Shown here piece after piece: positions 38,604-64,000 of a stretch of DNA of 64,000 nt. Made by a program: the position numbers and the translations under genes. Position 1 is the first letter of the stretch. The number at the start of each line of letters is the position of its first letter. The notes under the pieces were generated by a model. It made no database searches, was not told where the DNA came from, and saw only the letters and a program-made list of their open reading frames with translations. The stretch is taken from positions 25,073 to 89,072 of the forward strand of contig JAKFWZ010000078.1 of assembly GCA_021731695.1 (NCBI GenBank), written 5' to 3'. The stretch is from Candidatus Daviesbacteria bacterium. GTDB taxonomy: Bacteria; Patescibacteriota; Microgenomatia; Daviesbacterales; UBA10151.

Positions 38604-38785
38604 CGTCAAGGCAGCAAAGTTGGGGGCGCCCGAACTTCTTTTATTAGGAGGAAGGCGAAACCAGCGATGAAGCTTAAGTCGTAACAAGGTATCCCTAGCC
38701 GAAGCTGGGGATGGATCACCTCCTTTCTGGAGACGTTATGTGGCTGAGGATTCCTGTAAAATTTGTTGGTAGAAAGGTCGAAAGA

Positions 38786-38805
38786 CCTGCCTGCCGGCAG
38801 GCAGG
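38786..38805. repeat. Perfect 20-nt GC palindrome CCTGCCTGCCGGCAGGCAGG, copy 1 (58 nt after the 16S 3' end)
   Basis: An exact copy lies at 61412-61431. It is preceded by a ggtc-GAAA-gacc hairpin. Confidence 0.85.
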
Positions 38806-39080
38806 TAGCCTGGCGCACATACATAAACCTTTCACGCGCTTGGAGTTTAACCGCTTCAAGTTCAAGGTTGAGAAGTTCTAAAGTTCTTCTTTAAAAAAAC
38901 TTCCGGGTGAAACCGGAAAACATTCCCACCACTCTTTTGTAAAAAAGGTCAATAATGAAAAGGGTTAAGATCAGCTGTTGATAGTTCTGTTTCGCAGATA
39001 AGCAAACCTTGCGACTTTCAGTCTAAAGCAAACCTTAAAATAGTGCTTAACCCGTTTAAATGTCATTCAGACATTCAAAC

Positions 39081-39103
39081 TCCCCTTTAAAAGGGGATTT
39101 TTA
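39081..39103 (+). terminator. Rho-independent terminator downstream of 16S
   Basis: tcccctt-taaa-aagggga followed by TTTTT. A TATAAT box follows at 39098-39103, ahead of the next gene. Confidence 0.55.
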
Positions 39104-39116
39104 GTATAATCGCTAA

Positions 39117-39662
39117 ATGATGAAACCAAAATCAAAGCCAGTAGTCATCTTATATCCTGAAATTGCCGATAAAATATCACAGATGGTTAAAAGTGATCAG
39201 GAAATGAGAGTAAGAATGCAGGATGATCCAAAAGCTTACAAATCTGATATAGATACGAGGAATACAGATCAATTGAGAAAAATTGTTGAGGAAATTGGCT
39301 GGCCAATTTTTTCTAAAGTTGGTGAAGAAGCGTCAGGGAGTGCATGGCTTCTTATCCAGCATGCCGATCATGATGTTGTCTTTCAGGAAAAGTGTTTGAA
39401 GCTAATGAAAAAAGCTCCTAAAAAACAAATACAAATCCAAAATATTGCGTATCTTGAAGATAGAGTGAGGATTAATCAGGAAAAACCTCAAATTTACGGA
39501 ACACAATTTGAATTAGTCGGGGAGAACGACTGCAAGCCAAAAAACCTTGAGGATCCAAAAAACGTTGACAAAAGAAGGAAATCTATGGGGTTGAATACGA
39601 TTGAGGAATATAAAAAAGAATTTATGGAGTTTTATCAGCTAAAAGCAAAACACCACGGATGA
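39117..39662 (+). CDS. Hypothetical protein
   Basis: 181-aa ORF with a -10 box upstream. Confidence 0.4.
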   Translation: MMKPKSKPVVILYPEIADKISQMVKSDQEMRVRMQDDPKAYKSDIDTRNTDQLRKIVEEIGWPIFSKVGEEASGSAWLLIQHADHDVVFQEKCLKLMKKAPKKQIQIQNIAYLEDRVRINQEKPQIYGTQFELVGENDCKPKNLEDPKNVDKRRKSMGLNTIEEYKKEFMEFYQLKAKHHG

Positions 39663-39795
39663 ATCCGTGGGTGAAAGCTTTACCGCGGAGCGGTCAGCGA
39701 ACAGCTTTTAGCTGTGAAGCTGTATTGAGAAGCTCGCTGCTTTAGCAGTGCAGCTTCATAGAGTCGGCAAGTAAGGCTTTTGATATACTTAAGTT

Positions 39796-40626
39796 ATGGT
39801 TTTGTGGCTAATTAATATTCTTCTCTGGGTTTCAGCAATCCTTGTCTATAAAAAAAGATTTACGTCTCAAGGCAGGATAAGCGGGATGTATTTTGTTCAG
39901 CTCTATTATTTTATTTTGGCAATTGCTGATTCTTTACTGATGATTATGATTGCTCTGAATATTTTTCAAAGGCCAGAACTTCATAACCTGCAGATCTCCT
40001 CATCTTTTGTCTTTGGACTATTTTCAGCGTCTGTGATTACTGCGGCTATTGGCGTTGGAATTCATTCAACTGCGACTTCGGTTTATCAGGCTCTGATAAA
40101 AGAAAAACAAACTGAACTTAAAAGTTTTCGTATCAATGAAATTTTTCATCTTAATTTAAGTCACAATTTAATCTTTATTAGCGTGATTTTAGCTTCTTTT
40201 TTTCTTGCAGTTTTAGAGATAAATCATCCGTCAACGCGTGATTCAATGTTTTTAAACGCAGGCTCAACAATTACGCTAGGTGTAATGATTGGGTTAATTG
40301 AAACAATCGCAATTTTAAGAAGTTCCGGAACAACATTTTCTTCGCATTTGAATTACTGTATTTTAGGGACGTTTTTGGGAAGTGTAGCGATATTTATTTT
40401 TTGCCGGCCTTTTATGACGAGCGTTGATGCGTATCCTGTGGCTTATATTATGTTTGCTTCATTAGTGACCGTATTTTTGTCTTTGATAATTACAACTGCA
40501 ATTTTTATGACATCACATACTTTGAGTTCAAAGATTGTTAAAAGAACTTTTCCCGAAGGTCATCCCTTTAGGGAAGTGTTAAAGCTAAAGGTTTTTTTGA
40601 TAAAAATTGAGAGAGAATGGCTCTAA
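39796..40626 (+). CDS. Polytopic membrane protein
   Basis: Seven or more hydrophobic segments. Confidence 0.4.
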   Translation: MVLWLINILLWVSAILVYKKRFTSQGRISGMYFVQLYYFILAIADSLLMIMIALNIFQRPELHNLQISSSFVFGLFSASVITAAIGVGIHSTATSVYQALIKEKQTELKSFRINEIFHLNLSHNLIFISVILASFFLAVLEINHPSTRDSMFLNAGSTITLGVMIGLIETIAILRSSGTTFSSHLNYCILGTFLGSVAIFIFCRPFMTSVDAYPVAYIMFASLVTVFLSLIITTAIFMTSHTLSSKIVKRTFPEGHPFREVLKLKVFLIKIEREWL

Positions 40627-40630
40627 GGCT

Positions 40631-41866
40631 TTAGCTGTTCGATTGGCATTCTACCTTCAGGTTTTCCGGAAGTCTTGAGCAATAATTTTTGTATTCTTCT
40701 GATCCCTTATTAAAAACTTTGTTAGGATAGTTAATAAGAAATTCATCACATTTTTTGCCGTTTTCTGGTGAAGTTTTAGCTGCTTCCCGGCACATAAAAA
40801 TAGCCTTATCCGTTAGATTAATACTTGTTTGAAGAATTCTACTGGTAGTTTGTAAAAAACATAGCGACTGAAAATTTGTAGGAAGTTTAGTGCAGAAATC
40901 AGCAAGAAAAGGCAAATTATTTTTTTTAAAAGCAAAATGATTTGCAACAGCATTCATAAGAGTTTTGTAGCATTTGGTTTGTTGAGGAAAATCAGACGTG
41001 TATGAACAAAAGTTAGTCAGCCCTTCGGGAGTGCTGATGTCATTCCAAAAATATGGCCAGGATTCTCTATGACATACATAATAGGGTATACCTGTAAAGC
41101 TATCGCAAAACTTATCGATACTTTGTTTGTTCTTCTGAGGAGCAATATTTTCTATAAGTGTAAAATCGTCAGGCTCTAGAGGTTGGAAGAGTTGCATAAA
41201 AACCCCGGAGATACAATTTTCTATATATTCGCGACCTTCAGTTTCCTTACCTATATCTTCGCAAATCTCAACCGATTTTGAGATATTTGCATTTGTTAGA
41301 AACATACTTAAATGACCAAGTCCATGATTGCAGTTATAGACATCAACTTCTTTAGGGTGCCAATCTTCTCTAGGTTCACATATAGTTGCCAGTTCTGATT
41401 TTAAAGAATCTGCTTGACCTTCAGCTATAGTTTCGGTTTTAAATTTCTCGATAAAAGCTCCATGAGAACAGCCGCCGCTACAAAGATTCGAAGGGCATCT
41501 GGCTGCGACATCTTTCCAATTGGCAGGATTCTTTGTGACTTCCGCTGAACCCAAATCGTGAGCTAGAGTATGACAATAGGCAAAAGTGGGATCTTTCTCC
41601 CGGACATTTTCAAGAATTTGGAAGGCCTCTTCCATAGTTAAATTCACTGGATCTTTAGTAAGTTTAAAAATCTTATCACTATAACATTTATCCTTACCTT
41701 TAAATTCCTTACAAGTTTCAAAGATTTTTTCTGCATACTGAGTGAGGGTTGGGGCTGGTGGACTAAGTTTTCTCGAAAGAAATATTGAGAGCATGTAAAT
41801 TAAACCAATAAATATAAAGCAAATTACGAGCTTAAGTAATTGGTTTTTCTTAATGGTTTTTCTCAT
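40631..41866 (-). CDS. Anchored Cys/His-rich protein with repeated C-x-H-x-x-x-H motifs
   Basis: Recurrent motifs YCHTLAHDLG, GCSHGAF and NCNHGLGHL, plus about 20 Cys. Confidence 0.4.
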   Translation of the reverse strand: MRKTIKKNQLLKLVICFIFIGLIYMLSIFLSRKLSPPAPTLTQYAEKIFETCKEFKGKDKCYSDKIFKLTKDPVNLTMEEAFQILENVREKDPTFAYCHTLAHDLGSAEVTKNPANWKDVAARCPSNLCSGGCSHGAFIEKFKTETIAEGQADSLKSELATICEPREDWHPKEVDVYNCNHGLGHLSMFLTNANISKSVEICEDIGKETEGREYIENCISGVFMQLFQPLEPDDFTLIENIAPQKNKQSIDKFCDSFTGIPYYVCHRESWPYFWNDISTPEGLTNFCSYTSDFPQQTKCYKTLMNAVANHFAFKKNNLPFLADFCTKLPTNFQSLCFLQTTSRILQTSINLTDKAIFMCREAAKTSPENGKKCDEFLINYPNKVFNKGSEEYKNYCSRLPENLKVECQSNS

Positions 41867-41966
41867 ACTGAATTGTAGATTTAATATATAGCGGAATTTA
41901 TAACAGAATAATAGTTAACAAAACTTGAGGAGTGGGAAGATCTCAATTTCTTTCAGAAATTATCTC

Positions 41967-42180
41967 ACCAAATCGAAGATTTGTTGATTCCTAATCTCGT
42001 CTAATTTTTCAAATCAAACCACAGGGGTTTGCTTCAAAAAATGAGGCACGAAGGGGATAGCACACCCTCCGCCAAGGCGGAGCCGAACCAAATCAGAGAT
42101 TTGTTTTGATTCCCAATCTCGCTTTAATTTTTAAGCCCAATCTTTGAGATTGGCCCTAAAAATCTGAGGCACGAAGGGGA
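41967..42180. repeat. Tandem duplication (two units of about 92 nt) of the tRNA-Cys 3' end plus its downstream flank
   Basis: accaaatc[ga]agatttgtt..gattcc.aatctcg...taatttttaa....aaaaatgaggcacgaagggga occurs at 41967-42057 and 42087-42180. Confidence 0.7.
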
Positions 42181-42238
42181 ATCGAACCCCTGCATCGAGG
42201 TTTTGCAGACCCCAGCGTTTCCACTTCGCCATCGTGCC
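42167..42238 (-). tRNA. tRNA-Cys (GCA)
   Basis: Cloverleaf with acceptor ggcacga/tcgtgcc, anticodon loop cTGCAaa and T-arm ggttcgattcc. No encoded CCA. Confidence 0.8.
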
Positions 42239-42292
42239 GGTTACATGAGCGAGCAAGTGAATTTTAGCACAAAAGAGTCTTAAAAAATGAAT

Positions 42293-43327
42293 CTAAGCCG
42301 CTTTTTCATATAACTTGGCGACATTTCTAGCTTCATCTATTGTTACAAACGATAAGGCATTCAATGCCGGGAACACTGAGTCACGGCCAATTCGATCTCT
42401 CTCAAACGCGCCTATCTTTACCAAATTTCTGAGAGACCTTATAGGGTTTTCCAGGAGAGTTTGTGCGGGCATCTCAAAATTGGTACTGACATAAAAGACA
42501 TCTTGTCTTGTGCCCTCAGGATCTATCTTATACTCTTCTTCCAAAAGCCTTCTAAAAACTCCGTGGTGGTAATTTTCATCCCGTCCTATTAAGTCAAAAA
42601 TAGCAGCTACTGTAAGTGCACCTTCTCTTAAAGCAGCCTCTTTAATCCTTTCATAATTATTAGCTGTCACTTTTTCTTGAATATTCGCATAAGCTGCAAT
42701 TTGCCGTCTCGTTTTAAAAGGAGGAACCCATGTGTGAGCTAAATTTTTATAATACTCTGCTTCAATTTGCTCGAGAGTCTTAAAAGAATTTTTATCGGGA
42801 GCTTGCTCTTGAGAGTCTGCGTTTACTCCTAGGGGTCTTTTAACACTTGTTAGAATTAAGCCGAATGCATTACCATGTTGATTTTCTTCTGTATCCCACA
42901 TGCCATATACATCGTTATATCCCCAAACTGTTTGAGAAAATTCTTTAGCCCATCTCATGTAAAAGGGTAGCTTATCTTCAACCATTTTTACATCTACAAT
43001 AACTCCCGCGAGAGGTTCAGAAATAGTTTCGTTTGCTAGATTGTCTGTAATTATGATTCTTGACCGAAGATCAGCTTTTCCTTTTTCACCGGGGATACGT
43101 TCTACTTCTCCATCCTTAAGTGGTCTATCTATAGTAATTACTCCATTGCGATAAACCCAAGGCAGGGGTCGTTTTAGTTTGGTGTTAAAAAGTCTATGTG
43201 TTTCAATACCCAGTGCTCGTTCTTGGTGGGTTATAACTAAAGTTTCAGAAGTGTGATCATATCCAGGTCCCAATTCTTTATATTTAAGCATTGGGTTATC
43301 TGCGTGTCTTTCCAGTTGAGTCATAGT
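42293..43327 (-). CDS. Acyl-ACP desaturase-like di-iron protein
   Basis: Motifs EENQHGNAFG and GRDENYHHGVF. The start was trimmed to Met58 so the gene does not run through tRNA-Ile. Confidence 0.65.
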   Translation of the reverse strand, partial: TMTQLERHADNPMLKYKELGPGYDHTSETLVITHQERALGIETHRLFNTKLKRPLPWVYRNGVITIDRPLKDGEVERIPGEKGKADLRSRIIITDNLANETISEPLAGVIVDVKMVEDKLPFYMRWAKEFSQTVWGYNDVYGMWDTEENQHGNAFGLILTSVKRPLGVNADSQEQAPDKNSFKTLEQIEAEYYKNLAHTWVPPFKTRRQIAAYANIQEKVTANNYERIKEAALREGALTVAAIFDLIGRDENYHHGVFRRLLEEEYKIDPEGTRQDVFYVSTNFEMPAQTLLENPIRSLRNLVKIGAFERDRIGRDSVFPALNALSFVTIDEARNVAKLYEKAA

Positions 43328-43435
43328 TAAGGGTATTACTAAAGTAGCCTGGCGTTGTAAACATTTAGTAAACCTAAAGTAGAATCCTAGCTTCGGGCAT
43401 GTTAAAATACCTAGGTTTGGAATGAAAATTTTTTT

Positions 43436-43507
43436 GGGCGCGTAGCTCAGCGGTAGAGCGCGTCTCTGATAAAGACGAGGCCCTTGGTTCGACACCAAGC
43501 GCGCCCA
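43436..43507 (+). tRNA. tRNA-Ile (GAU)
   Basis: GGGCGCGTAGCTCAGCGGTAGAGCG, anticodon loop cTGATAa and T-arm GGTTCGA. Confidence 0.85.
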
Positions 43508-43627
43508 CCCCTAAAATTAATTCCTTGCAATTTCAACCGAAATTGTAAAAACGCAACGCTAGGGGTTCGACACAATCACCGCCCACATTGATACTTTTTG
43601 GTTTCTTCTGTTTAAATTTTCCAAAAA

Positions 43628-44071
43628 TTATGGGCTAGAGGAGGGCGCTGCTGATGCTTCTGGACTTGAAGATGCAGTGGGCGATTCAGCAGGGGATGAG
43701 CTTGGTGAGGATGTTGCAGATGCAGAGGGACTTGGGGTAGGCGTAGGAGTTGAGATTGTTGATGCAGATGGGGAAGGTAAAGCACTTGCCGAAGGAGAAG
43801 GGGTTGCGCTTGGTTTTACAGAAGGCTTTGGTGTGGCTTTAACTGCTGGTTTTATTGAAGCTTTAGCTGAAGCGGACGGACTTGGTGAGGGTTCTGGAGT
43901 GGGTGTAGCGGTCGCAGAAGGTGATGGACTGGATGTTTCCCCTAATACTTCAGGCGAAGGGAAAAAGGTATTTTTAACGAATATTCCACCACCTACGAGC
44001 ATTAGTACTAAAAAAGAAGCTAGCCCTACTGTAAGTTTTGAGGGCTTATTCGCAAAGAGTCTTTGGAACAT
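43628..44071 (-). CDS. Anchored Ser/Pro/Thr/Ala-rich low-complexity protein
   Basis: TM helix followed by (SPSPSASA)-type repeats. Confidence 0.4.
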   Translation of the reverse strand: MFQRLFANKPSKLTVGLASFLVLMLVGGGIFVKNTFFPSPEVLGETSSPSPSATATPTPEPSPSPSASAKASIKPAVKATPKPSVKPSATPSPSASALPSPSASTISTPTPTPSPSASATSSPSSSPAESPTASSSPEASAAPSSSP

Positions 44072-44552
44072 GTAAACATTATATACATAAATTAAATATT
44101 TGCGCTTTCAGGCTCAGAGCAAACAGTTTTTACATAATTCTTTCTCTATTTATATTTGAACTTTCACACTACTTTCGTAAATTACGTGTTATGGATGATG
44201 AAGTTATTGCTGGTCACCAGGCAGATATAGAGGATGCTCAGAATCAGATTCAGGAACAGCAAACCCGGGTTGAAACTGCTCAGGCTGCGATTGACCAGAG
44301 AATGAGTGATTTGCAAAGTCAAGCTGATCAGGCTCAGTCACAGGCTGCTCAAACTCCTTAGGTAGTGTAAAACCTCTTTGTGCGGGTCTTTACGCTTCTT
44401 CAGACAGACTATTAAATTAAGCAGAAAAAGTCCGGATCCGCTAGGATCAAGAATTTTTTAATGACTAAAATCCCTAATTTGGGAAAAATTATAGCAAAAA
44501 AGCAAAAAAAGTTGACTAATTTAGGCCTGGTGAGTTAAACTACTTTTTTGAA

Positions 44553-45488
44553 TTGGCTTCTAAGTTAAAACACATCCTAAAGTCTCAACAATTCAGCCGG
44601 GAATGGCTGGAGAATGAATTTTTCCCTTTATCTTCGGAAATGAAACAATCAGTTTTGAATGGAGAAAGACGCCATGATCTGGACGGAAAAATTGTTTCCC
44701 TTTTATTTTATGAGCCCTCAACCAGAACCAGAACTTCATTTCAACAGGCTGCTTTAAAACTCGGCGCGCTAACTGTTGCCACAGAAAACGCCAAAGAATT
44801 CTCTTCGGCTGTAAAAGGCGAGACTATGAAAGATACAACGCGGATTATGAATGCATATCACTTTGACGCGGTCGTGATCCGCGCAGATTACGAGGGAGCC
44901 GCGGAAGAAGCAGCTTCTGTTTCGGATTCTCCGATTATTAATGCCGGAGACGGTGCAGGGCAGCATCCAACTCAATCTCTTCTCGATATATTCACAATTT
45001 ATGAAAAGTTCGGAAAAATCGATGGGCTTAAAGTTGCCTTTGTCGGAGATCTGAAGTATGGAAGAACTGTGCGGTCTTTATGTTATTTGCTGGGAAAATT
45101 TAAGGATGTTGAGGTTCATTTTGTCGCACCGGATTCGCTTCAGATGAGAGAGGATATTTTGGAATATCTAAAAGAAAGCGGAATTAAATACGAGTTGCAT
45201 TCTGATATCAATGAAGTTGCAGAGATTGCAGATGTTTTTTATATGACCAGAGCTCAAAAAGAGAGGATGAAAGAAGGAGAGGAATTTTCGCCTGACGGTT
45301 ATAGAATTACGGAAGCTTTGCTGAAAAAAATCAGAAAAGAAGCGATTATCTTGCATCCTTTGCCTCGTTCAAATGACTTTAATGAAATTCCGGAGGAGTT
45401 AACCGATGATCCGAGAATTTTAATTTTCAGACAGGCAGAAAACGGATTATTCACCCGCATGGCGCTTTTGAAAATGGTTATTGAGTAG
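44553..45488 (+). CDS. pyrB: Aspartate carbamoyltransferase catalytic subunit
   Basis: Motifs STRTRTSF, HPTQSLLD and HPLPR. Confidence 0.85.
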   Translation: MASKLKHILKSQQFSREWLENEFFPLSSEMKQSVLNGERRHDLDGKIVSLLFYEPSTRTRTSFQQAALKLGALTVATENAKEFSSAVKGETMKDTTRIMNAYHFDAVVIRADYEGAAEEAASVSDSPIINAGDGAGQHPTQSLLDIFTIYEKFGKIDGLKVAFVGDLKYGRTVRSLCYLLGKFKDVEVHFVAPDSLQMREDILEYLKESGIKYELHSDINEVAEIADVFYMTRAQKERMKEGEEFSPDGYRITEALLKKIRKEAIILHPLPRSNDFNEIPEELTDDPRILIFRQAENGLFTRMALLKMVIE

Positions 45489-45786
45489 TTTTTTCTTCTA
45501 CCACTGAATCGCAAATTTTCTCTTTGCAACTTTGGCAGCAAAGTTGCGCAAACTGGGCTCGCTGGAAAGTCGACCTAATTTTACTCAGTCGCTGATCGGG
45601 GAGGCTGCCCCTTCGGCTTTTTTGCTAATCGCAAAAAACCGAAATCCCCTGATAGCTCCTTCATAAAATCTAATACACCCTTTGCTTCGCAAAGCAACGG
45701 TCTTTGTTTCTAAGCTCGCTCTCTAAAAAGCAGCTGCGTTCATGCTCGCAAATAAGACGATTGCTTTATGTGTTAGAATTTAATTC

Positions 45787-54539: not shown

Positions 54540-54842
54540 TTAATTCCCCTCAAGTGCTCTCTGTATTTCTTCAGGAGTTAGGTCTTCAGGATCGCTATTA
54601 ATGGTTTCACAATCTGCGTTATAAGGGTCATTGCATGCAGTATCATCCTCAACCGGATCGGAGACTGGAATAGGGGAAACCGGAATTTTACCGTCACCAA
54701 TTTTAATTACCCCCGTTCCGATCAATGCAAGAGTTGTGGCTAAAATAAGTCCAATCATAGTTAAAACCGCAAGAGCAGAAAAACCTCTGAAAGTGATGAG
54801 TGATGAGTGATGAGTGATGAGTCGGGCAGATTTTTTTATCAT
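54540..54842 (-). CDS. Small single-pass protein with acidic C-x8-C tail and a (GTGATGA)x4 tract in codons 8-17
   Basis: ATGA overlap with the upstream gene. Codons 8-17 (LITHHSSLIT) are encoded by the heptamers. C-terminal motif ACNDPYNADC. Confidence 0.45.
   Translation of the reverse strand: MIKKSARLITHHSSLITFRGFSALAVLTMIGLILATTLALIGTGVIKIGDGKIPVSPIPVSDPVEDDTACNDPYNADCETINSDPEDLTPEEIQRALEGN
54793..54820. repeat. Heptamer tract (GTGATGA) x4 inside the 5' coding region
   Basis: Four perfect units. One unit is 7 nt, not a multiple of 3. Confidence 0.85.
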
Positions 54843-55765
54843 TGTTGTAGGGCTTTTACGGTGATCTCGTTAATTTTGCGTCCGAGTGAATAAAGTATAA
54901 AAGTCTGACCATTTGGCCCGATGTCGAGAATATCTTCACTGCCGTTTCTTGATCTTTCAACAAATTTGCCATCTTTTGTTTTTACTTCAACCGGATCAGA
55001 TGTTTCATCAGAAACATCCCATTCAATTTCAACTTCTCCGCAAGTTGATGTGCCTGCAGGAATTATGCACGGATTAGGATTTGCAGAAATTACGCCTGAA
55101 GGTTGCGTCAAACCCATTTTTTTAACCAGAATATCAAAAGCATCTTTTGGTGGTATATTTTTCATCTGGAGATCTTCTCTTTTAGCATCGGCTTCGCTAA
55201 TTGGCAATAATTTCCCCTTGTATGAAACCCTTAAAATCTTTTCGCCCGAATCATTTGTACAAAGATAAACGGTCGCATCGTCTTTTATGCTTTCTCCGGT
55301 GCCGTCTTCTAAAGGAACATCGATCATAACTTTAAGCGATGTGTTTACTCCTAAATCAGCTTTAACGCAAAGATTTGGTTTTCCTTCTTCAATTTGTAAA
55401 TACTTTAAAACACGGTTGAATTTTTTAGCCAGTTTATAGTCAAACTTAATTTTTCCGCGGCAGGTTCTTAAAGCATCTGGGTCCTGAGACTGCAAACAGG
55501 TACTGTCTTCGGAAACCACCCGGCTTAAATATGATTTGAATTCCTGTGCAGTTCTTATTCCCAGATCTTTTTTAAATACACCATATTGTCCTTTTTCACT
55601 CCAGTCTAAATATGTCTGCATAACTTTGAGTCTTTCCTGGCTAACCTGGACTTTGTTTGCAGAATCCTGTGCAAAAACAGCCTGATTTATTGAGATAATG
55701 ATTATGAGAAATAAAAGAGTTAATAGATAAACTTTAGAAGTAGTGGACAGTGAGAAAAATTTCAT
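54839..55765 (-). CDS. Secreted protein of the CV[KP]ADLG-domain family
   Basis: Signal peptide. Block YLQIEEGKPNLCVKADLGVNTS is shared with 56445-58817 and 59337-60071. Confidence 0.5.
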   Translation of the reverse strand: MKFFSLSTTSKVYLLTLLFLIIIISINQAVFAQDSANKVQVSQERLKVMQTYLDWSEKGQYGVFKKDLGIRTAQEFKSYLSRVVSEDSTCLQSQDPDALRTCRGKIKFDYKLAKKFNRVLKYLQIEEGKPNLCVKADLGVNTSLKVMIDVPLEDGTGESIKDDATVYLCTNDSGEKILRVSYKGKLLPISEADAKREDLQMKNIPPKDAFDILVKKMGLTQPSGVISANPNPCIIPAGTSTCGEVEIEWDVSDETSDPVEVKTKDGKFVERSRNGSEDILDIGPNGQTFILYSLGRKINEITVKALQQ

Positions 55766-55829
55766 GGCTCATTCTCTAGAATATAACCTTTGCTCAGGAG
55801 TTTGCAACATTTTCTGTAGGATTCTTACA

Positions 55830-56039
55830 CTAAGGAAGAAGGAAAACATCATTGCTATCGTTGCAATTTCCTTCTTCTCCTGACTCACAAATAACCTGAG
55901 GCTGATTTGCCTGCTCAATTTTTTTTTGTTTATCCACCTCGGAAAAATAGGTGAATGTCTGGGTAAATTCCCACATTATAAAGATGCCGATTACCACAAT
56001 GAAAAGTAACGATAGGGGTGATATGCCTTTTTGATTCAT
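55830..56039 (-). CDS. Small single-pass protein with acidic C-x8-C tail
   Basis: N-terminus MNQKGISPLSLLFIVVIGIFIMW. C-terminal motif ICESGEEGNC. Confidence 0.35.
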   Translation of the reverse strand: MNQKGISPLSLLFIVVIGIFIMWEFTQTFTYFSEVDKQKKIEQANQPQVICESGEEGNCNDSNDVFLLP

Positions 56040-56196
56040 AATTTATGGACGCTTGAAGATAGAAAATGGAAGATAGTGGTAGAGAATGGAAAATTGAGAA
56101 TGGACGTCTTAGACGAAGTCGCAAGCCTCGCTTATCTTCGATTCTCAATCTTCAAAATACTATGTTCTATCCTCGATAATCTATCGTCTAATATTT

Positions 56197-56442
56197 CTAA
56201 TTATTATCATCCTGATTAACAGTCGAAAGTATTTCAAGCTGTTCCTGATCAAGTTGGTATTTTTCCTGAACAGGTGCGTATTTTGGATCATTGGAAATGT
56301 TATAAGGGGTAGACTCGGGTGAGGGAGTTACCGAAGCAATTGGAGATTGTTTAAAAAAACCCATGTAAAATGCAAAGCCTAAAAAGGCAAGAAAAAGTAT
56401 TCCGATTATTATAAAAATTCCACTTGATGCTTTTTGGTTCAT
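56197..56442 (-). CDS. Small single-pass protein (MNQK paralog)
   Basis: N-terminus MNQKASSGIFIIIGILFLAFLGF. It starts 2 nt after the upstream gene's stop. Confidence 0.35.
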   Translation of the reverse strand: MNQKASSGIFIIIGILFLAFLGFAFYMGFFKQSPIASVTPSPESTPYNISNDPKYAPVQEKYQLDQEQLEILSTVNQDDNN

Positions 56443-56444
56443 AC

Positions 56445-58817
56445 TTAATTAATAGGACACGTATCTATAGCATTAGGTGTTCCCGGATATATTTGATTTG
56501 ATGAATTCCTGCACTGTCCACATGAGTCGCAAGTTGGATAATTCCCGGGGCAACTGTGAGAGTATTCTGAGTCAGGGCTAAGCTTATTGCAGTAGAAATC
56601 CTTATTAAAGACTCCTTTAATAGTACAGTATAAGTTGTCGTCAATTCTCGATAAGTTGCATGCACCTGTAGAAAGAGAGCAGGTGAAATTGGATTCATAA
56701 CATCTTGGCAGTGATGAATTCGACGGTGAGGAAGTGGAATTGGAAGTTAGGGAGGTGTCATTTCCTGACTCGACTGAAGTTTTGCCGTCACAGAAGGTGT
56801 TTTGGATAAACCCGGGCTGATTTTTGAAAAGAGTTTCCGCGTTTCGGTAGTGGGTTATGACATCCGTTGGCAGGGTTGCGCAGGTTGGATTCGGTTTAAA
56901 CTTTTGATCTGTTGAAAGAATCGGCGTAAAAGTACCGCCTGCAAAAATCATCCAAATTTTTTGCGGGACCCGCCTGTCGTTACAAATATTAACTCTTCCG
57001 GTTGTGTTGTTTGCGGAAGTTGCAGTGAATAGCGGATTTAAACCTAAATCAGCTTTAACGCAAATTCCCGGAATGTCATTAAAAACTGCATAAAATGCGG
57101 ATAATCTGGCGGCGGTTTTAGCCAGATCAAATCTGGTTCTGAATTTTGAATCGATACATTGTCCGACGTTTGCATTATCCGGGCATGTAGGTAATTCGTT
57201 GACGATTGAAGTTAATTCATTCTTGGCGAGGGTTGAGACGATTCGGAGATTGCCGCTTGGAGAAGCGGGCAACCTTTGGTTTAATGCATCAAAACTTGAT
57301 TTAAATCCAATAATTTCTGCCTTAGTTAAGCTAATTGGAATTGTACCTCCTCCGCCGGAACTTGCAGATGGAGCAGGGCTTGTGCTTGCAGCGGGAGAAG
57401 CACTTCCTGATGGAGATGCTGATGCACTGCCTGAGGGTGAAGATGAAGCAGAGGATGATGGGGATGGTGAGGAGGAAGGTGAAGCAGCAGCACACTGATT
57501 ATTAACGCATTTGTTGGATGCACAATCTTTGTTTTCGTTACAGGCTCTTCCTGTGGCTGTGGTGCCTCCTGCGCATTTATTGTTTGTGCAGGTTCCCGAC
57601 TGGCACTCCGACCCGCTGGTGCAGGAAGAGCTGCCGGTTTTCGTGCCTGTTGAATCACATTTTCCGTTAGTGCAGGATCCTGATGCGCAATCGGTGCCTT
57701 TAGTGCATGATGAACCTGAGGTTTTCGCTCCTCCGACGCATTTTCCTCCCGAACAATCGCCGGATTTACACTGGGAGTCCTTACCGCAAGACTTTCCTGC
57801 ATCCAATAGACTGCCGGTGCTGTCGTTTTTGCTTCCCGGGGCGCATTTTATATTCTGGTTTTCCGGATCCTTAGGAACAAAAGCCACGATTTCGCTGGGG
57901 GTTATCTGTAGAATTGCCGGGAAAGGTGTCCAGCCGTTATATGAGACAGCGTCTGGGGTCCCGATGGTATTCGGCACGCCCGAATCATTTTGCCCCGAAC
58001 CGCCGGTTACATAGTTCGTATAGATGACAATTCGGTCATTATCATAGCCTGTGGCTACATAACCGCTGGTTGACTGTTTATCGTTCCCGGTTCCTCTTTG
58101 CTGGAATTTTTCTCCGTTTGGATCCTTGACCGATGTTTCGATCATCGTTCCCCGGTCAAAATGAGACATTGTGGCTAGAGGGAATTTTCCGTTTGCCGGG
58201 CTTGCGGTCCCCGGGTTTTCGGTTAAGCATGAATTAGAGTTTGCATCATAACCTAAATTTTCGCATTTATAATATTGGTTCCAATCTTTAACTTTGAGAT
58301 ATTCATCCTTATACGGGTCCTCTTTTAAAGTATCGTTGGGGTTTTTGCCCTTTCTTATTGTATATATCCATTCATCACCGTCCGCGCTAAATTTATAAAC
58401 CACATCCTTAAACTCCTTTGCTCTTAGCTCTTCGCCTTTTTTACCATCGAATCCGCTGTCCCGGCCGAATTGTTCATATTCGGGACCTGAACTTTTCTTT
58501 GGTTCAATATTGTCTTCGTTGGAATTTTTAAACGCCACATAGCGGTTACTCTCACTAAGACCAACCTTTACGCATCCGTCGGGCGGGGTGGGGAGAGTGG
58601 CCGCGAACGGGACTATGTTTGTCCTTTGCTGGACTAAGTAAACCGTCAGGCCGATTGCCGCAACTAAAAATAAGGGAAGGAGTATCTGGGAAATGCCCCG
58701 CTGGTTCAGCGTTATTCGTTGTTCGTTATTCGTTGTTCGTGATTCGTTATTCGCTGCAGACAGAGGCTGTTTTTTTTGATGAACGATGAACGAAAAACGA
58801 TTAACCAGATCGGGCAT
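56445..58817 (-). CDS. Large N-terminally anchored Cys-rich surface protein (CxxGxxCxSGxCxxGKC x5 and CVKADLG domain) with heptamer tract in its 5' end
   Basis: Cytoplasmic tail KKQPLSAANNESRTTNNEQRIT, then a TM helix. Five Cys-knot-like repeats, a Ser/Pro linker, and the block SAFYAVFNDIPGICVKADLG. Confidence 0.55.
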   Translation of the reverse strand: MPDLVNRFSFIVHQKKQPLSAANNESRTTNNEQRITLNQRGISQILLPLFLVAAIGLTVYLVQQRTNIVPFAATLPTPPDGCVKVGLSESNRYVAFKNSNEDNIEPKKSSGPEYEQFGRDSGFDGKKGEELRAKEFKDVVYKFSADGDEWIYTIRKGKNPNDTLKEDPYKDEYLKVKDWNQYYKCENLGYDANSNSCLTENPGTASPANGKFPLATMSHFDRGTMIETSVKDPNGEKFQQRGTGNDKQSTSGYVATGYDNDRIVIYTNYVTGGSGQNDSGVPNTIGTPDAVSYNGWTPFPAILQITPSEIVAFVPKDPENQNIKCAPGSKNDSTGSLLDAGKSCGKDSQCKSGDCSGGKCVGGAKTSGSSCTKGTDCASGSCTNGKCDSTGTKTGSSSCTSGSECQSGTCTNNKCAGGTTATGRACNENKDCASNKCVNNQCAAASPSSSPSPSSSASSSPSGSASASPSGSASPAASTSPAPSASSGGGGTIPISLTKAEIIGFKSSFDALNQRLPASPSGNLRIVSTLAKNELTSIVNELPTCPDNANVGQCIDSKFRTRFDLAKTAARLSAFYAVFNDIPGICVKADLGLNPLFTATSANNTTGRVNICNDRRVPQKIWMIFAGGTFTPILSTDQKFKPNPTCATLPTDVITHYRNAETLFKNQPGFIQNTFCDGKTSVESGNDTSLTSNSTSSPSNSSLPRCYESNFTCSLSTGACNLSRIDDNLYCTIKGVFNKDFYCNKLSPDSEYSHSCPGNYPTCDSCGQCRNSSNQIYPGTPNAIDTCPIN
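58711..58752. repeat. Heptamer tract (GTTATTC/GTTGTTC/GTGATTC) x6 inside the 5' coding region
   Basis: Six 7-nt units encode NNESRTTNNEQRIT. Confidence 0.85.
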
Positions 58818-58991
58818 ATAAATTAACTATATAAATTGAAGGAGCGTTTGTCCAGTTAATGATGAGGGATAGGTTTAGAGTTATACGGTTAGGAGGCTGG
58901 TATCGTGAGGAGGTTAGGAAGATGGTGCCTAATACCAAAAACCCTTTAACCCTAAACCATACGAGCTTCGTTACCCTTTAACTCTAAGCTA

Positions 58992-59333
58992 TCATTTAGC
59001 GTAAATAGTAGATTCGGACTCTGTAGGATTTCTTTCACCGTCATCTGTCCAGGTCATAAATTGAGACGAAGTGTCGCATCCTGTGTAATCAGTATCAGGA
59101 CACTCAGGATCAGCAGGGTGAATGATAGCAGTAGAAGAGTTTTGGTTTTGAACAGGAACTTCAGAAGCTGCCTCTTTAGGTTTAGATTGCGCAGCCCAAA
59201 AACCATAAAAAATTACTCCTGAAACGAAAATTACAGCAACTGAAATAAATATAATTAACGATGTAATACCTTTTTCTGAGTTTGGCATTTGCTTGTACTG
59301 AGTAAAGCGAACGCTAAGTTTGACATTTTTCAT
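58992..59333 (-). CDS. Small single-pass protein with acidic C-x8-C tail
   Basis: TM helix LIIFISVAVIFVSGVIFYGFW. C-terminal motif ECPDTDYTGC. Confidence 0.35.
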   Translation of the reverse strand: MKNVKLSVRFTQYKQMPNSEKGITSLIIFISVAVIFVSGVIFYGFWAAQSKPKEAASEVPVQNQNSSTAIIHPADPECPDTDYTGCDTSSQFMTWTDDGERNPTESESTIYAK

Positions 59334-59336
59334 TTT

Positions 59337-60071
59337 TTACAGCCCCACCTTTTCTTTGGCTAGTTTGATTTGTTCCGCAAAACCCTGCTCAATAGTATCT
59401 CTTGAAGGATCTTCCTTACCTGTGGCTGGCTTTAGCTGATTGTTAACAACAACTCTCCAAACTAAAGCACCATCATTGCCGGAGCATAGCAGCAATCTTC
59501 CTGAACCTCCGCCTGCTGCATTTGCAGGGATTTGTGTGCCTACTCCTAAGTCTGCAGGAACACATAGTCCTGCGACACCTTCTTTAATAGCATAAAATCT
59601 TGCTAAGTTATTAGCAACTTTTGCATCATAATAGGAAGTTGCAACTGTTGTTTTATCTTCAGGTGTTTCTTTGCAGACAGGGGAAGAGGTTGAAGTTGAT
59701 GTTGACGAAGAAGATCCGGAGCCTTTATAAGCTTTTTCACCTTTACCGATTCCGGGAGCATATCCACCAGGATCTTTGCAGGGAATTCCTTTTGTAATAA
59801 GTTCTTTTTCGTGCTCAGCAACCCACTCTTCAACAGCGTTTGGTCCGTAAACAGCTGCAAAGTCAGCTTTAGACTGCTCGCTTTGTCCGCCTAGAGTTTG
59901 TCCGTCGCAGGCTACAGTTTTTCCCGCGGCCCACGGTAAAAAGCCCGTGCCGCTTTGAACTAAAAGAGTTCCGGCAATAATGCCTACTGCCACTAAAGCT
60001 AAAATTAAAACAGGGGAAAATCCTGATTGTTTATTAATATAGTATGTTTTGTTTTTCATTTTGCTATACAC
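59337..60071 (-). CDS. Anchored protein of the CV[KP]ADLG-domain family
   Basis: Block RFYAIKEGVAGLCVPADLG. The gene overlaps the upstream gene by 16 nt. Confidence 0.5.
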   Translation of the reverse strand: MYSKMKNKTYYINKQSGFSPVLILALVAVGIIAGTLLVQSGTGFLPWAAGKTVACDGQTLGGQSEQSKADFAAVYGPNAVEEWVAEHEKELITKGIPCKDPGGYAPGIGKGEKAYKGSGSSSSTSTSTSSPVCKETPEDKTTVATSYYDAKVANNLARFYAIKEGVAGLCVPADLGVGTQIPANAAGGGSGRLLLCSGNDGALVWRVVVNNQLKPATGKEDPSRDTIEQGFAEQIKLAKEKVGL

Positions 60072-61537
60072 GCGTTTGCTTTAGCTTTTGCAGCTTCAAG
60101 TTTTTCTTTAGCCTTTGCTTCGATTTCGCTGTTAATTTTTCCTTTAACATTGCTTAAGATTTGATTAAATTCATCGTATCTCGTAAGCGCGATTTTTGCA
60201 TCTGCCTCAGTTGCGGCCAGATCTTCAGGAGTAAATACACCGATTGCATAGCAGGGGATATTAAGACCATTTGAATCAACTCCGCAGGTACCTGAAGATG
60301 AAGATTTGCCTGGAGCTGATTGAGAAGCGGGGGCTTCACCGCCTGTTGATTGTGCTGACGGAGCTTTATTTGTACTTGCTCCAGTACTTCTACTGCCTGA
60401 ATTGGTCACAGCTAATTTAGCCGCTGTGCAGCGTGTGTATTGAACAGCAACAGCCGCACCATTTTTTATCACAGAGGTTTCGCCTATCTCGCACCCTTCT
60501 CTTTTGTCTGTATCAGTTGGATCGTTATCGCCTCTACACCAGGAGGTTTCTACTTGTGTACACTTAGCAGTCGTATAAGTACATCTGGCTTTCTTTTCAA
60601 TTACGTAACAGCCCAGTGTATTTCCAGCACATTCGTCACTGCATTGCTGCGTATCAGTTGCTGAAGCAGCTGATTGCCCCTTAGGTGAGCAGCCGTCGGC
60701 ATAAGGGCCAGTATAACCTCCCCGACATTCAAGATTGGTCTGGCTGTGTTTTTTATTGCACCAGTTTAGATCATCAGAATTAAATTCTTCACAGCTTGTC
60801 TGATTTGCTTTTACAACGCAGCCATCGTTAAACGGTCCTCCGGATCCACCAAAGCATTCATAATTGGCACCATGTGATTTACAGAATGAAGTTGGTTCTC
60901 CTTCGCAGGTGTTAGTCATAGTATTGATCTGCGGTACATTCGTGAGAGTGCAGAGACCGGTATTAATATTAATTGAAGTATTCACTCCATAACCTGCGCA
61001 ATCATCAAGATTACGGGGTGGTGCACAGCGGGCCTCACTTGAAGAGATATTTATACAGATTTTCCCAAAATTGCTACCCTGACTGCAATTTTCAACTATT
61101 TGACCATTTTGATTCCGGATTTCATTGCCACCACCACAATGTGTTTGGTTTAGATTAGTTGGGGAATTAATACAACTTGCCTGACCGGCAGCTTCAACGC
61201 ATACATAATCTGCACCATAATCTGCGCAATTCTCTTTAAAACCATTATTAGCCTTGAACCTGACAGATGCGCCATTACAATAGGTGTCGAAAGAATTTGT
61301 AGGATTGGAGGCATCATCTGCTCTAGGTAAAAAGTTAACACCATTCTGAATAAGTAAAACGCCTGCGGCAATGCCGAAGAGGAGCAAAACTAAAACGGGG
61401 ATGGGGGCGAAACCTGCCTGCCGGCAGGCAGGGCCTTTTTCGTGATTCGTTATTCGTTCATCGTTTGTCGTCAGCGCAGGTCGCTTTTTGCTATGAACTA
61501 ATAACCAATAACGACGAACTATTTTCGGCAGGTTCAT
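60056..61537 (-). CDS. Anchored Cys-rich surface protein. Its 5' coding region carries degenerate heptamers and the 20-nt GC palindrome
   Basis: Tail KKRPALTTNDERITNHEKGPACRQAGFAP, then a TM helix, then a domain with about 40 Cys. Confidence 0.5.
   Translation of the reverse strand: MNLPKIVRRYWLLVHSKKRPALTTNDERITNHEKGPACRQAGFAPIPVLVLLLFGIAAGVLLIQNGVNFLPRADDASNPTNSFDTYCNGASVRFKANNGFKENCADYGADYVCVEAAGQASCINSPTNLNQTHCGGGNEIRNQNGQIVENCSQGSNFGKICINISSSEARCAPPRNLDDCAGYGVNTSININTGLCTLTNVPQINTMTNTCEGEPTSFCKSHGANYECFGGSGGPFNDGCVVKANQTSCEEFNSDDLNWCNKKHSQTNLECRGGYTGPYADGCSPKGQSAASATDTQQCSDECAGNTLGCYVIEKKARCTYTTAKCTQVETSWCRGDNDPTDTDKREGCEIGETSVIKNGAAVAVQYTRCTAAKLAVTNSGSRSTGASTNKAPSAQSTGGEAPASQSAPGKSSSSGTCGVDSNGLNIPCYAIGVFTPEDLAATEADAKIALTRYDEFNQILSNVKGKINSEIEAKAKEKLEAAKAKANACIAK
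61412..61431. repeat. 20-nt GC palindrome, copy 2 (inside the coding region, followed by a T-run on the + strand)
   Basis: CCTGCCTGCCGGCAGGCAGG followed by GCCTTTTTC. It encodes PACRQAG on the minus strand. Confidence 0.85.
61443..61470. repeat. Degenerate heptamer tract (GTGATTC GTTATTC GTTCATC GTTTGTC)
   Basis: Four related 7-nt units encode TNDERITNH. Confidence 0.7.
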
Positions 61538-61790
61538 TTTTGTATTCTTACATTAATATTAAGTAATTTTTCAGCTTGACACAAGTGTGAATAATCTAGT
61601 AGAATTGCTTACTGATGTTTTCTAAGAGAAACAACGTATTTAATTTAGCTTCCGTTTAAGCTTGGCAACCGTTCGTCCGCCAGCTGGCGGAGGCGGATAG
61701 TCCCAAGCGTTGCACCCCTCGAATTTAAAAGTGAATAAATTAGTTAATGACAAGTCTAAACCGCTTGTTGGTTTTGTGGAGCAGAGGTTC

Positions 61791-61862
61791 GGGCCCGTAG
61801 TTCACCGGTAGAACGCTTCATTTGCAATGAAGATGCAGGAGGTTCGACTCCTCTCGGGTCCA
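61791..61862 (+). tRNA. tRNA-Ala (UGC)
   Basis: GGGCCCGTAGTTCACCGGTAGAACG, anticodon loop tTTGCAa and T-arm GGTTCGACTCC. Confidence 0.85.
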
Positions 61863-62254
61863 CAGGTTTAATGATTAAAGAATGATGATTAAGGATTAAT
61901 GAATAAAATCATTAATCGTAAATCTTTAATCACTAATCAATCTTTTTTTGACTTGGATATGGATTTTTGACGAAGAATAGTTGAAAGTCCATATCCGGGC
62001 CGAAGATATGGCTTTAATTCTATTAATTCCCACTAGGGAAAGAGGAATAAAGTTTAAGTCCTTGGAGTTTGTACTTTGAAATGTGAATACGACATAAATG
62101 AAGAGCAATCAGCTCTCAGTCAACAGTCGTCAGCCAATCGCAAGAAAAGCTGAAGTCTGAAAGCTGAAGTCTGAAAGCTCTTTTATGAGAAGGCCAATAA
62201 GGGTCAGATTTAACATCTGATCCATGAGCGTCGTCGAGACGCTCAAAATAGTCA

Positions 62255-64000
<1,746 letters not shown>

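Follow-up and report, generated by a model that had tools for sequence, protein, structure and literature searches.

The 16S and 23S ribosomal RNA (rRNA) genes of a Candidatus Daviesbacteria bacterium (contig JAKFWZ010000078.1) lie on the plus strand with 23,530 nucleotides (nt) between them, and two transfer RNA (tRNA) genes, tRNA-Ile(GAU) and tRNA-Ala(UGC), stand towards opposite ends of this interval. The layout raises the questions of whether the locus is a broken rRNA operon, how old the break would be, and how the pieces would be transcribed. Here we analyzed a 64,000-nt stretch of the contig, called the window below, and compared it with contigs of relatives, which carry L numbers. Our results suggest, with a probability of roughly 0.78, that an ancestral 16S-tRNAIle-tRNAAla-23S operon of a Patescibacteria (candidate phyla radiation, CPR) chromosome was split between its spacer tRNAs long before the sampled relatives diverged, and that its pieces now form three units. 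A sequence-only reading of the same DNA had proposed an operon progressively disrupted by insertions, with read-through from the rRNA region into the housekeeping genes of the interval.

Arrangement of the rRNA and tRNA genes

The RNA genes were located with Rfam (16S, 23S, and three tRNAs) and ARAGORN (tRNA anticodons and strands), and their coordinates are given in Table 1. The tRNA-Ile gene follows 16S at 4,705 nt and tRNA-Ala precedes 23S by 396 nt; both keep the rRNA strand and the canonical Ile-Ala order, yet they are 18.3 kb apart. These measurements bear out the distances of about 23.5, 4.7, and 18 kb in the sequence-only reading, which had recognized the two tRNAs as the classical spacer pair; its figure of 390 nt between tRNA-Ala and 23S was slightly too low. 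The most plausible reading of the layout is a former 16S-Ile-Ala-23S operon, all four RNA genes having kept their order and strand. No second rRNA locus, for which the sequence-only reading had advised a check, was found within the 64-kb window by Rfam, and the 23.5-kb interval contains no decayed rRNA fragments or pseudogenes (rRNA search at E<=1), riboswitches, or other known RNAs.

Brewer et al. regard rRNA genes as unlinked when more than 1500 bp separate the closest 16S and 23S genes, and the distance here is 23,530 nt. The locus also has the features of the class 'unlinked by distance' in Fig 3D of Lui et al. (2021), namely the same strand, more than 2 kb, and opposite-strand genes between. 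The genes on the minus strand are those for the 411-amino-acid (aa) protein, tRNA-Cys, the desaturase-like protein, the Pro/Ser-rich protein, and the ACT-domain protein, and the block of seven genes that ends before tRNA-Ala (Table 1). Judged from the gap, the terminator-like site after 16S, and these antisense genes, the locus would not be a canonical rrn operon with 16S and 23S co-transcribed across a short spacer.

The 16S gene itself is interrupted, and the early stop of its Rfam match (37743) is an artifact of this interruption. Exon 1 ends with ...GTACACACCGCC at 37671, exon 2 starts at about 38603 with CGTCAAGG..., and the true 3' terminus GGATCACCTCCTTTCT, the anti-Shine-Dalgarno end, lies past the interruption at 38713-38728, in agreement with the end at 38729 assumed in the sequence-only reading. 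The exon junction was set by alignment to the 16S genes of L006 and L026, both without the insertion. The intervening sequence contains an open reading frame (ORF) for a LAGLIDADG protein (38070-38591, 173 aa, Pfam LAGLIDADG_1, E=4e-16). The group I intron model RF00028 gave no match at E<=1 in 35800-39400, which covers the insertion, and a match to group-II-D1D4-1 (32.6 bits) was under the threshold of 35 and was rejected as evidence for a group II intron. A LAGLIDADG-encoding 16S insertion fits a frequent marker of Patescibacteria/CPR, though not a strict definition. The 16S gene also has unusual universal-primer sites, and among the weaker matches of the window's pgk just one has a record with an informative taxon, a genome of Candidatus Staskawiczbacteria (46%, partial match). 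Taken together, the insertion, the primer sites, and the pgk relative would place the source organism in the Patescibacteria/CPR.

Conservation of the layout in relatives

Relatives were found through pgk and through the membrane protein encoded after 16S (57 homologues), and their contigs, from independent assemblies, were compared with the window. An exact look-up of the pgk product of the window gave no record, whereas the membrane protein had a 100%-identical match. This was the synteny check that the sequence-only reading had advised, and the nine relatives share the unlinked layout and one backbone after 16S, as far as their contigs reach. The common order is 16S 3' end or trailer, membrane gene, tRNA-Cys, and tRNA-Ile, in nine lineages (L001, L006, L007/L008, L012, L013, L024, L025, L026, and L030). 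The position and minus-strand orientation of tRNA-Cys are the same in all relatives. After tRNA-Ile come variable genes and then, where the contig reaches so far, pyrB-pgk; the whole core block pyrB-pgk-gap-alr is present in the same order in L001 and L013, and pyrB-pgk also in L006 and L002/L007. No 23S gene follows 16S within 12.2 kb (L001), 13.6 kb (L013), 11 kb (L006), or 19.1 kb (L007 and L002). The split and the pyrB-pgk arrangement hold down to relatives with 42-50% identity in the neighboring membrane protein. The split is thus common to all sampled relatives, and it therefore predates the clade and is old.

The tRNA-Ile gene is downstream of 16S in 9/9 lineages with data, at distances of 1.26, 1.53, 2.5, 4.5, 4.6, 4.7, 4.9, 5.0, and 6.7 kb. 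The spacing differs between genomes because accessory genes are continually gained and lost in slots along the backbone, which hold 0-6 genes between trailer and membrane gene, 0-2 between this gene and tRNA-Cys, and 0-2 between tRNA-Cys and tRNA-Ile. A recent stepwise break-up of an intact operon by insertions, with the plus-strand housekeeping genes expressed by read-through from 16S, would be in line with the genes that are specific to the window (DUF6624, 411-aa, and desaturase-like genes, absent at those places in L001 and L006) and with the location of pyrB, pgk, gap, and alr on the rRNA strand. However, every relative has both the split and the pyrB-pgk block, including those at 42-50% identity in the membrane protein, and a recent break-up is therefore quite improbable. 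Of the progressive disruption proposed in the sequence-only reading, the ongoing insertion and deletion in slots was retained and the recent stepwise break-up was not.

The 23S side was examined by a metagenome scan with the lineage-typical 23S 5' motif, which gave eight contigs, six of them with enough upstream sequence. In 6/6 of these contigs (L016-L019, L021, and L022), tRNA-Ala(UGC) lies 430-560 nt before 23S, and neither 16S nor tRNA-Ile is present in up to 6.8 kb upstream. In two of them (L017 and L022, 23S 89-92% identical), tRNA-Ala-23S is preceded by homologues of the 790-, 244-, and 493-aa genes, arranged as in the window, and the junction of these genes with tRNA-Ala and 23S is therefore independently confirmed. 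The 5S gene is detached from 23S as well, by 2.7 kb in L016 (5432-8214) and 6.7 kb in L019 (4488-11309). Type IV pilin-like genes, genes for cohesin/dockerin proteins, and a transposase-like gene lie between 23S and 5S in these two contigs, and in both the 23S gene contains one or two group I introns (RF00028).

These contigs also bear on the idea that the window is a chimeric contig joined at conserved rRNA sequence, the true operon being linked. Ribosomal RNA genes are classic points of breakage and mis-joining in metagenome assemblies, and many of the relatives' contigs do break in the 16S 3' end (L001, L007, L008, L012, L013, and L030 begin inside it, and L024 and L025 begin in the trailer and end before tRNA-Ile). 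Such an artifact is nevertheless barely credible, as L006 and L026 span the whole 16S and run on into the same downstream genes, the six contigs from the 16S 3' end and the two from the trailer continue alike, L017 and L022 reproduce the junction on the 23S side, and positions 39337-40699 are matched at 100% identity by a Logan contig.

Separate transcription units

The 16S gene, tRNA-Ile, and tRNA-Ala-23S appear to be three separate transcription units on the same strand. The predicted 16S promoter is the top sigma-70-type match within 35000-45000, and L006 has the same TTGACA and TAAAAT hexamers upstream of 16S at comparable spacing, followed by a conserved leader. Leader and trailer of 16S contain the perfectly complementary strands of a putative processing stem (Table 1), and the trailer motif ATTCCCACCACT is kept in 7/7 aligned sequences (the window and six relatives' loci). 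The hairpin and T-run that would close the unit have an equivalent at the same relative place in L001, L006, and L013, with different loop or stem sequence. 16S thus appears to be transcribed alone, as had been suggested from the terminator in the sequence-only reading. The extended -10 element upstream of tRNA-Ile is identical to that of 16S, and TGnTAAAAT is kept at this place in L006, L010, L012, L013, L026, and L030. The predicted promoter of the third unit is the best sigma-70-type match in 53000-62400. Before tRNA-Ala, L016, L018, and L021 have a -35/-10 pair with the same spacing and then the leader ACTGATG(A/T)TTTnnAAGAGAAACAACG, and in L017 and L022 the -10 element and this leader were seen in the stretch examined. 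Use of these promoters and of the terminator is putative.

Read-through from 16S to pyrB is not supported because the terminator and antisense genes intervene: the terminator recurs after 16S in relatives, and three minus-strand protein genes and the antisense tRNA-Cys lie before pyrB. The proposal that pyrB, pgk, gap, and alr are expressed from the rRNA region was accordingly dropped. The sequence-only reading had further described both tRNAs as stranded. In all related contigs with enough sequence, tRNA-Ala is still attached to 23S. Passive stranding does not hold for tRNA-Ile, because this gene has its own extended -10 element, travels with tRNA-Cys and the membrane gene, varies in orientation, and has been overwritten in several relatives.

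Several smaller features were observed in and around the leaders. A boxA-like GCACCTTAACAAC is present at 35988-36000 in the 16S leader, with no support for a function; a boxA-like or other leader motif shared by the 16S and 23S leaders was sought, and AAGAGAAACAACG was present solely in the tRNA-Ala leader. Two copies of a 40-nt element (80% identical, 35182-35221 and 35753-35792, 571 nt apart) both end in TTGACA. The second provides the -35 box of the 16S promoter, the first lies upstream of a 135-aa ORF (35252-35659), and the two copies may represent tandem promoters. Compared with L006, the 16S leader of the window has an additional small hairpin repeat GCGATAGTTCCGGCTAACGCCGTGTAACTATC at about 36205-36240, and a close copy adjoins tRNA-Ile in L001 (about 1405-1440). 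Tandem heptanucleotide repeats (TAATCGT, TGATTAG, TTATTCG, TGATGAG, ATAAACC, and similar) occur in intergenic leaders at 2044-2138, 5130-5239, 7776-7821, 35899-35929, 50404-50440, 53869-53953, 54792-54822, 58695-58761, 61433-61471, 61900-61939, and 62150-62188. They include the 16S leader, as an insertion relative to L006, and the tRNA-Ala/23S spacer, and some extend into the annotated N-termini of the 790- and 493-aa ORFs.

Origin of the split

According to the split that we favor, unit 1 would consist of a promoter, a leader, 16S with its own leader/trailer processing stem, and a terminator; unit 2 of tRNA-Ile read from its own extended -10 promoter; and unit 3 of a promoter, tRNA-Ala, and 23S, with 5S detached too in relatives. 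The interval would combine a stable backbone (membrane gene, tRNA-Cys, pyrB, pgk, gap, and alr) with slots of lineage-specific accessory genes. We infer the descent of both tRNAs from the spacer, and the manner of the original split, from the present arrangement.

Several points weigh against this explanation. First, tRNA-Ile is on the opposite strand in L001, L010, and L013/L014. Second, every relative already has the membrane gene and an antisense tRNA-Cys separating tRNA-Ile from 16S, and so the case for a spacer origin of tRNA-Ile depends on its proximity, on the gene order, and on what is generally known of bacterial spacers. Third, the promoters and the terminator are consensus matches, and the scan totals were not above the shuffled expectation, so the functional argument rests on position and conservation. 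Fourth, the ancestral linked state is a reconstruction, and no relative with a linked operon was among those recovered.

A different explanation would be that neither tRNA was ever a spacer tRNA and that tRNA-Ile is part of an independent module of membrane gene, tRNA-Cys, and tRNA-Ile near 16S. The constant coupling of tRNA-Ile to tRNA-Cys and the membrane gene, its own predicted promoter, and its opposite orientation in three lineages would suit such a coincidence. Nevertheless, the Ile(GAU) gene followed by the Ala(UGC) gene is the canonical bacterial spacer pair, and the two are found downstream of 16S in 9/9 lineages and fixed before 23S in 6/6 contigs, respectively. By a rough estimate, not a computed value, the chance of finding one specific tRNA at most 5 kb downstream of 16S and another at most 400 nt upstream of 23S, in canonical order and orientation, is well below 1e-4 in a genome of about 1 Mb. 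A coincidence is therefore very improbable.

The split could also have arisen by reciprocal loss. Two operons in direct orientation would have flanked the core block, the upstream one losing tRNA-Ala-23S-5S and the downstream one 16S-tRNA-Ile. Textbooks attribute the unlinked rRNA genes of reduced genomes to recombination or loss among rRNA copies. This process would explain in one step why core housekeeping genes, and not merely accessory DNA, lie between the halves, as well as the same strand and order of all four RNA genes. To our knowledge, however, CPR genomes as a rule have a single rRNA copy, the interval is free of rRNA fragments and pseudogenes at the threshold given above, and no relative has an intermediate. 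We therefore consider reciprocal loss unlikely. The route as such is discussed in the literature on unlinked rRNA genes (10.1101/705046). The layout is compatible with the growth of one spacer as well as with reciprocal loss from two operons, and neither intermediates nor rRNA relics were found.

A perfect 20-nt GC palindrome, CCTGCCTGCCGGCAGGCAGG, occurs in exactly two copies (38786-38805 and 61413-61432; chance expectation 0), 57 nt past 16S and 358 nt ahead of tRNA-Ala, near both edges of the interval. It was considered as a recombination scar and rejected, as it is absent from the loci of nine relatives and its first copy lies in a variable hairpin of the 16S trailer.

Genes of the interval

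The features of the window and of the relatives' loci are listed in Table 1. The number of genes in the slot right after the 16S terminator varies, with 0 (L001, L006, and L012), 1 (the window and L024), 2 (L007/L008 and L013), 4 (L026), 5 (L030), or 6 (L025). These gene sets are unrelated. Methyltransferases and MazE/PIN toxin-antitoxin pairs are among them, and neither an integrase nor a transposase was seen there. In the window the slot holds the DUF6624 gene, which is absent at this place in L001, L006, L007, L012, L013, L024-L026, and L030, where the slot is empty or has other genes. Gain of slot genes would be more parsimonious than repeated loss because each insert is lineage-specific. 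As judged from the contigs compared, gene gain and loss in the slots of the interval is real and ongoing.

Two further genes of the window occupy slots nearer to tRNA-Ile. The 411-aa Cys-rich gene is flanked by a duplicated 3'-end fragment of tRNA-Cys, and the slot of the desaturase-like gene, between tRNA-Cys and tRNA-Ile, is empty or holds unrelated genes in other relatives. The listed start of the desaturase-like ORF (43498) overlaps tRNA-Ile, and the true start is probably a later ATG. A duplicated 3'-end fragment exists for tRNA-Ile, too. A Pfam search of 20 ORFs from the interval revealed no domain of an integrase, recombinase, or transposase, and an island driven by an integrase is thus unsupported. 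A 16-nt match to the tRNA-Cys 3' end at 15621, inside a 1008-aa ORF, was dismissed as a probable chance match.

The core genes pyrB, pgk, gap, and alr, assigned to the plus strand in the sequence-only reading, were confirmed by Pfam. The minus-strand surface-protein cassettes described there fit the paralogous family of seven genes before tRNA-Ala, with paralogy among the 308-, 790-, 244-, and 493-aa proteins detected by BLASTP and with N-terminal membrane anchors. Four minus-strand secreted proteins (54540-54842, 56445-58817, 59337-60071, and 60056-61537) have a common N-terminal leader of the type ..VHxKKxP..N.E.R.TN.E.., after which come (Q/R)xG|(F/I) and a hydrophobic helix; it resembles a prepilin-type signal but lacks Glu at +5. 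Three of the minus-strand secreted proteins have a common domain of about 110 aa with the motif CV(K/P)ADLG. The 744-aa cohesin/dockerin-type protein also has a match to the Hint (intein-like) domain, below the Pfam threshold, and a further secreted protein of this type is encoded at 34135-35028 on the minus strand, such that these proteins flank the rRNA region. A direct repeat of 172 nt (88% identity) lies at 30814-30985 and 31790-31961; its second copy makes up the 5' end of a 180-aa ORF, and its first resembles a truncated duplicate.

Table 1. Coordinates of the features in the window and in the contigs of relatives
Feature	Sequence	Position	Strand	Evidence or remark
Predicted 16S promoter	window	35787-35816	+	TTGACA, 18 nt, TGTTAAAAT (TG-extended TAAAAT); 11/12 + TG
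16S leader strand of processing stem, CAAAAGAGTGGTGGGAA	window	36090-36106	+	perfect 17-bp complement of 38923-38939
16S rRNA gene, interrupted	window	36336-38728	+	Rfam RF00177, 1278 bits over 36336-37743; 3' part read directly
16S intervening sequence, about 932 nt	window	37672-38602	+	near E. coli position 1400 (decoding-centre region)
16S trailer strand of processing stem	window	38923-38939	+	pairs with 36090-36106
Terminator-like hairpin and T-run, predicted end of 16S unit	window	39081-39103	+	sequence scan
Hypervariable slot	window	39104-39795
Hypervariable slot	L025	175-3604
Hypervariable slot	L026	1875-6229
Hypervariable slot	L030	380-4066
Hypervariable slot	L013	334-2770
Hypervariable slot	L007	303-2278
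DUF6624 gene, window-specific, in variable slot after 16S	window	39117-39662	+	Pfam 1e-22
276-aa membrane-protein gene, conserved backbone marker	window	39796-40626	+	57 homologues; after 16S in all relatives
411-aa Cys-rich hypothetical gene, window-specific, between membrane gene and tRNA-Cys	window	40631-41866	-	no Pfam match; absent there in relatives
tRNA-Cys 3'-end fragment (relic)	window	42043-42059
tRNA-Cys(GCA), antisense to rRNA genes	window	42166-42238	-	Rfam, ARAGORN
Ferritin-like/desaturase-like gene, window-specific, tRNA-Cys/tRNA-Ile slot	window	42293-43330	-	Pfam FA_desaturase_2 4e-11
Predicted extended -10 element of tRNA-Ile, TGTTAAAAT	window	43400-43408	+	identical to 16S -10 element
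tRNA-Ile(GAU), acceptor type GGGCGCG	window	43435-43510	+	Rfam, ARAGORN
Relic 3' third (T-arm and acceptor strand) of older tRNA-Ile, acceptor type GGGCGGT	window	43562-43586	+	matches 3' end of intact tRNA-Ile of L001/L008/L030
Pro/Ser-rich gene, between tRNA-Ile and pyrB	window	43628-44071	-
Core-gene block pyrB ... alr	window	44553-53885	mostly +	Pfam
pyrB	window	44553-45488	+	Pfam
pgk	window	45787-46782	+	Pfam
Two cohesin/dockerin-type secreted proteins, between pgk and gap	window	46845-49079, 49105-50298	+
gap	window	50504-51694	+	Pfam
ACT-domain gene	window	51691-52341	-
alr	window	52755-53885	+	Pfam
Seven genes for membrane-anchored or secreted Cys-rich proteins, paralogous family	window	53945-61537	-	no Pfam match
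Predicted promoter of tRNA-Ala-23S unit	window	61576-61605	+	TTGACA, 18 nt, TAGAAT; 11/12
tRNA-Ala(UGC)	window	61791-61863	+	Rfam, ARAGORN
23S rRNA gene, 5' 1.7 kb, runs off window	window	62260-64000	+	Rfam RF02541, 1226 bits, cut at 3' end
Nested tRNA locus	L007	4793-5063
Nested tRNA locus	L013	4466-4740	-
Nested tRNA locus	L012	2393-2588
Nested tRNA locus	L012	1115-1310	-
Nested tRNA locus	L017	1100-1380	-
Nested tRNA locus	L022	2570-2850	-
Nested tRNA locus	L026	8250-8368
D-loop element	L007	4811-4894
D-loop element	L013	4638-4723	-
D-loop element	L012	2409-2487
D-loop element	L012	1208-1290	-
D-loop element	L017	1290-1360	-
D-loop element	L022	2761-2831	-

Nested tRNA genes in relatives

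In relatives, tRNA-Ile, tRNA-Cys, and tRNA-Ala occur as nested genes, a tRNA within a tRNA, and the window contains relics alone, namely the Ile and Cys fragments in Table 1. The outer tRNA keeps its acceptor, D, and T arms, and its anticodon arm is replaced by a closing helix around a complete second tRNA with the same anticodon and a different acceptor stem. Simple tRNA-Ile genes of acceptor type GGGCGGT are present in L001, L008, and L030. In L007 and L013, a tRNA-Ile of this type is interrupted twice, by an 80-nt element of two hairpins in the D-loop and by a tRNA-Ile of type GGGCGCR in the anticodon arm, and the helix around the inner tRNA differs in sequence between these lineages. L006 and the window retain the inner tRNA-Ile plus relics of the outer one, and the nesting is reversed in L026. 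Strain pairs with 99-100% identical membrane proteins differ in having a simple, nested, or inverted tRNA.

A covariance model of the D-loop element found the same architecture at tRNA-Cys (L012) and at tRNA-Ala (L017/L022). The outer tRNA-Ala of L017 retains its G3:U70 pair. The element, of about 80 nt, sits after G18-G19 of the outer D-loop, begins with GGTTTAAA, and ends with CC(A/C)GGAA. Compensatory changes are present in 10/20 of its pairs, 93.5% of cells are paired, the observed covariation score was reached by 0/500 shuffles, and slid controls scored far lower. Inner tRNAs that are fully nested have complementary flanking sequences (z between -3.1 and -4.7). For the simple tRNA genes of the window and its closest relatives, z was about +1 in 4/5 cases, and for those of tRNA-Ala in L016 and L021 it was -1.2 and -1.8. 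The 274-nt unit of L013 is predicted by an unconstrained fold to form a perfect cloverleaf within a cloverleaf. The element matched no Rfam family and had no copy in the window with search filters off. In IMG/VR viral contigs no credible copy was found, the 33 pattern matches being AT-rich chance hits with a best covariance-model score of 21 bits. A literature search on nested tRNA genes in Patescibacteria found nothing relevant.

The D-loop element and the nesting could represent a mobile cassette by which a tRNA is replaced, or else a precursor scaffold under selection. It is a tentative and rather doubtful idea that the spacer-derived tRNAs beside the split rRNA genes are targets of an undescribed 'tRNA-in-tRNA' system. 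If the architecture were mobile or under selection, its turnover could be a continuing cause of rearrangement in the former spacer, by way of inversions, tRNA-allele replacement, and neighboring gene slots, and the nested genes, if functional or mobile, would be of wider interest to RNA biologists. The nearest parallels are the split, permuted, and multi-intron tRNAs of archaea and red algae, in which splicing by the bulge-helix-bulge endonuclease yields one tRNA. Such tRNAs are the subject of two papers (PMC3978253; PMC3728597). In general, these disrupted tRNAs resemble the nested genes in their non-canonical interruptions, including in the D-loop, and in having related inserts in different tRNA species. 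The nested genes differ from them in the bacterial host, in the complete inner tRNA with the same anticodon, and in the outer tRNA without an anticodon arm.

Comparison with known systems

The layout has practical consequences, as amplicon or long-read methods that span 16S to 23S would miss this clade. The relatives form a comparable genome series in which the former spacer would have grown from about 1.3 kb to several kb by slot-wise gain, and this series could be used to study how rRNA-adjacent DNA becomes a hotspot of accessory genes. The predicted promoters, terminator, and stem bear on how the output of 16S and 23S would be balanced from separate promoters with a single rRNA copy.

In a canonical rrn operon, such as rrnA of E. 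coli, 16S, tRNA-Ile, tRNA-Ala, and 23S lie on one strand behind a strong upstream promoter, and leader and trailer form a stem. The window shares with it the gene order, the strand, the 16S processing stem, and a promoter, here predicted, upstream of 16S. It differs in the gap of 23.5 kb instead of about 0.4 kb, in the terminator-like site after 16S, in the antisense genes, and in the predicted promoters of tRNA-Ile and tRNA-Ala-23S.

In Borrelia burgdorferi, three independent transcripts have been shown experimentally, and one of the spacer tRNAs (Ile) is inverted (PMC3037291). As in the window, kilobases of protein-coding DNA part 16S from 23S and both spacer tRNAs lie between them, and the inverted tRNA-Ile resembles that of the relatives L001, L010, and L013. 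However, tRNA-Ala of Borrelia follows 16S and is co-transcribed with it, tRNA-Ile is nearer to 23S, the gap is a few kb, and 23S-5S is tandemly duplicated, whereas in the window Ile precedes Ala, the 16S unit would end at a predicted terminator before any tRNA, the 23S unit would begin with tRNA-Ala, and the gap is 23.5 kb.

Patescibacteria are among the clades that are coherently unlinked, defined as having a 16S-23S spacer of more than 1500 bp, and LAGLIDADG homing-endonuclease insertions are frequent in their rRNA genes (Brewer et al., 2019 preprint, later ISME J 2020; 10.1101/705046). Among 34 circularized CPR genomes, 27 were unlinked, with gaps of 2.9-309 kb (24.6 and 26.3 kb, for example); the same study describes a category with the same strand, more than 2 kb, and opposite-strand genes between, some genomes with a detached 5S, and others 'linked by 2 tRNAs plus ORFs' (Lui et al., 2021; PMC8172020). 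The window resembles these published unlinked genomes in the same strand, the distance of more than 2 kb, the opposite-strand protein genes, and the homing-endonuclease insertion in an rRNA gene; its 23.5 kb is inside the published range, and one published Microgenomatia genome has a detached 5S, as do the window's relatives. The split rRNA layout is thus already documented for Patescibacteria/CPR, and the window adds one more lineage to a known pattern. In the parts of the Brewer and Lui papers that we consulted, distances and linkage status are reported, with no tracing of the spacer tRNAs and no comparison of close relatives, and to that extent the tracing and the backbone-plus-slots structure are not in the published accounts. 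Compared with those cases, our results show tRNA-Ile kept on the 16S side and tRNA-Ala on the 23S side, with a conserved backbone between them and slots in which accessory genes change from lineage to lineage.

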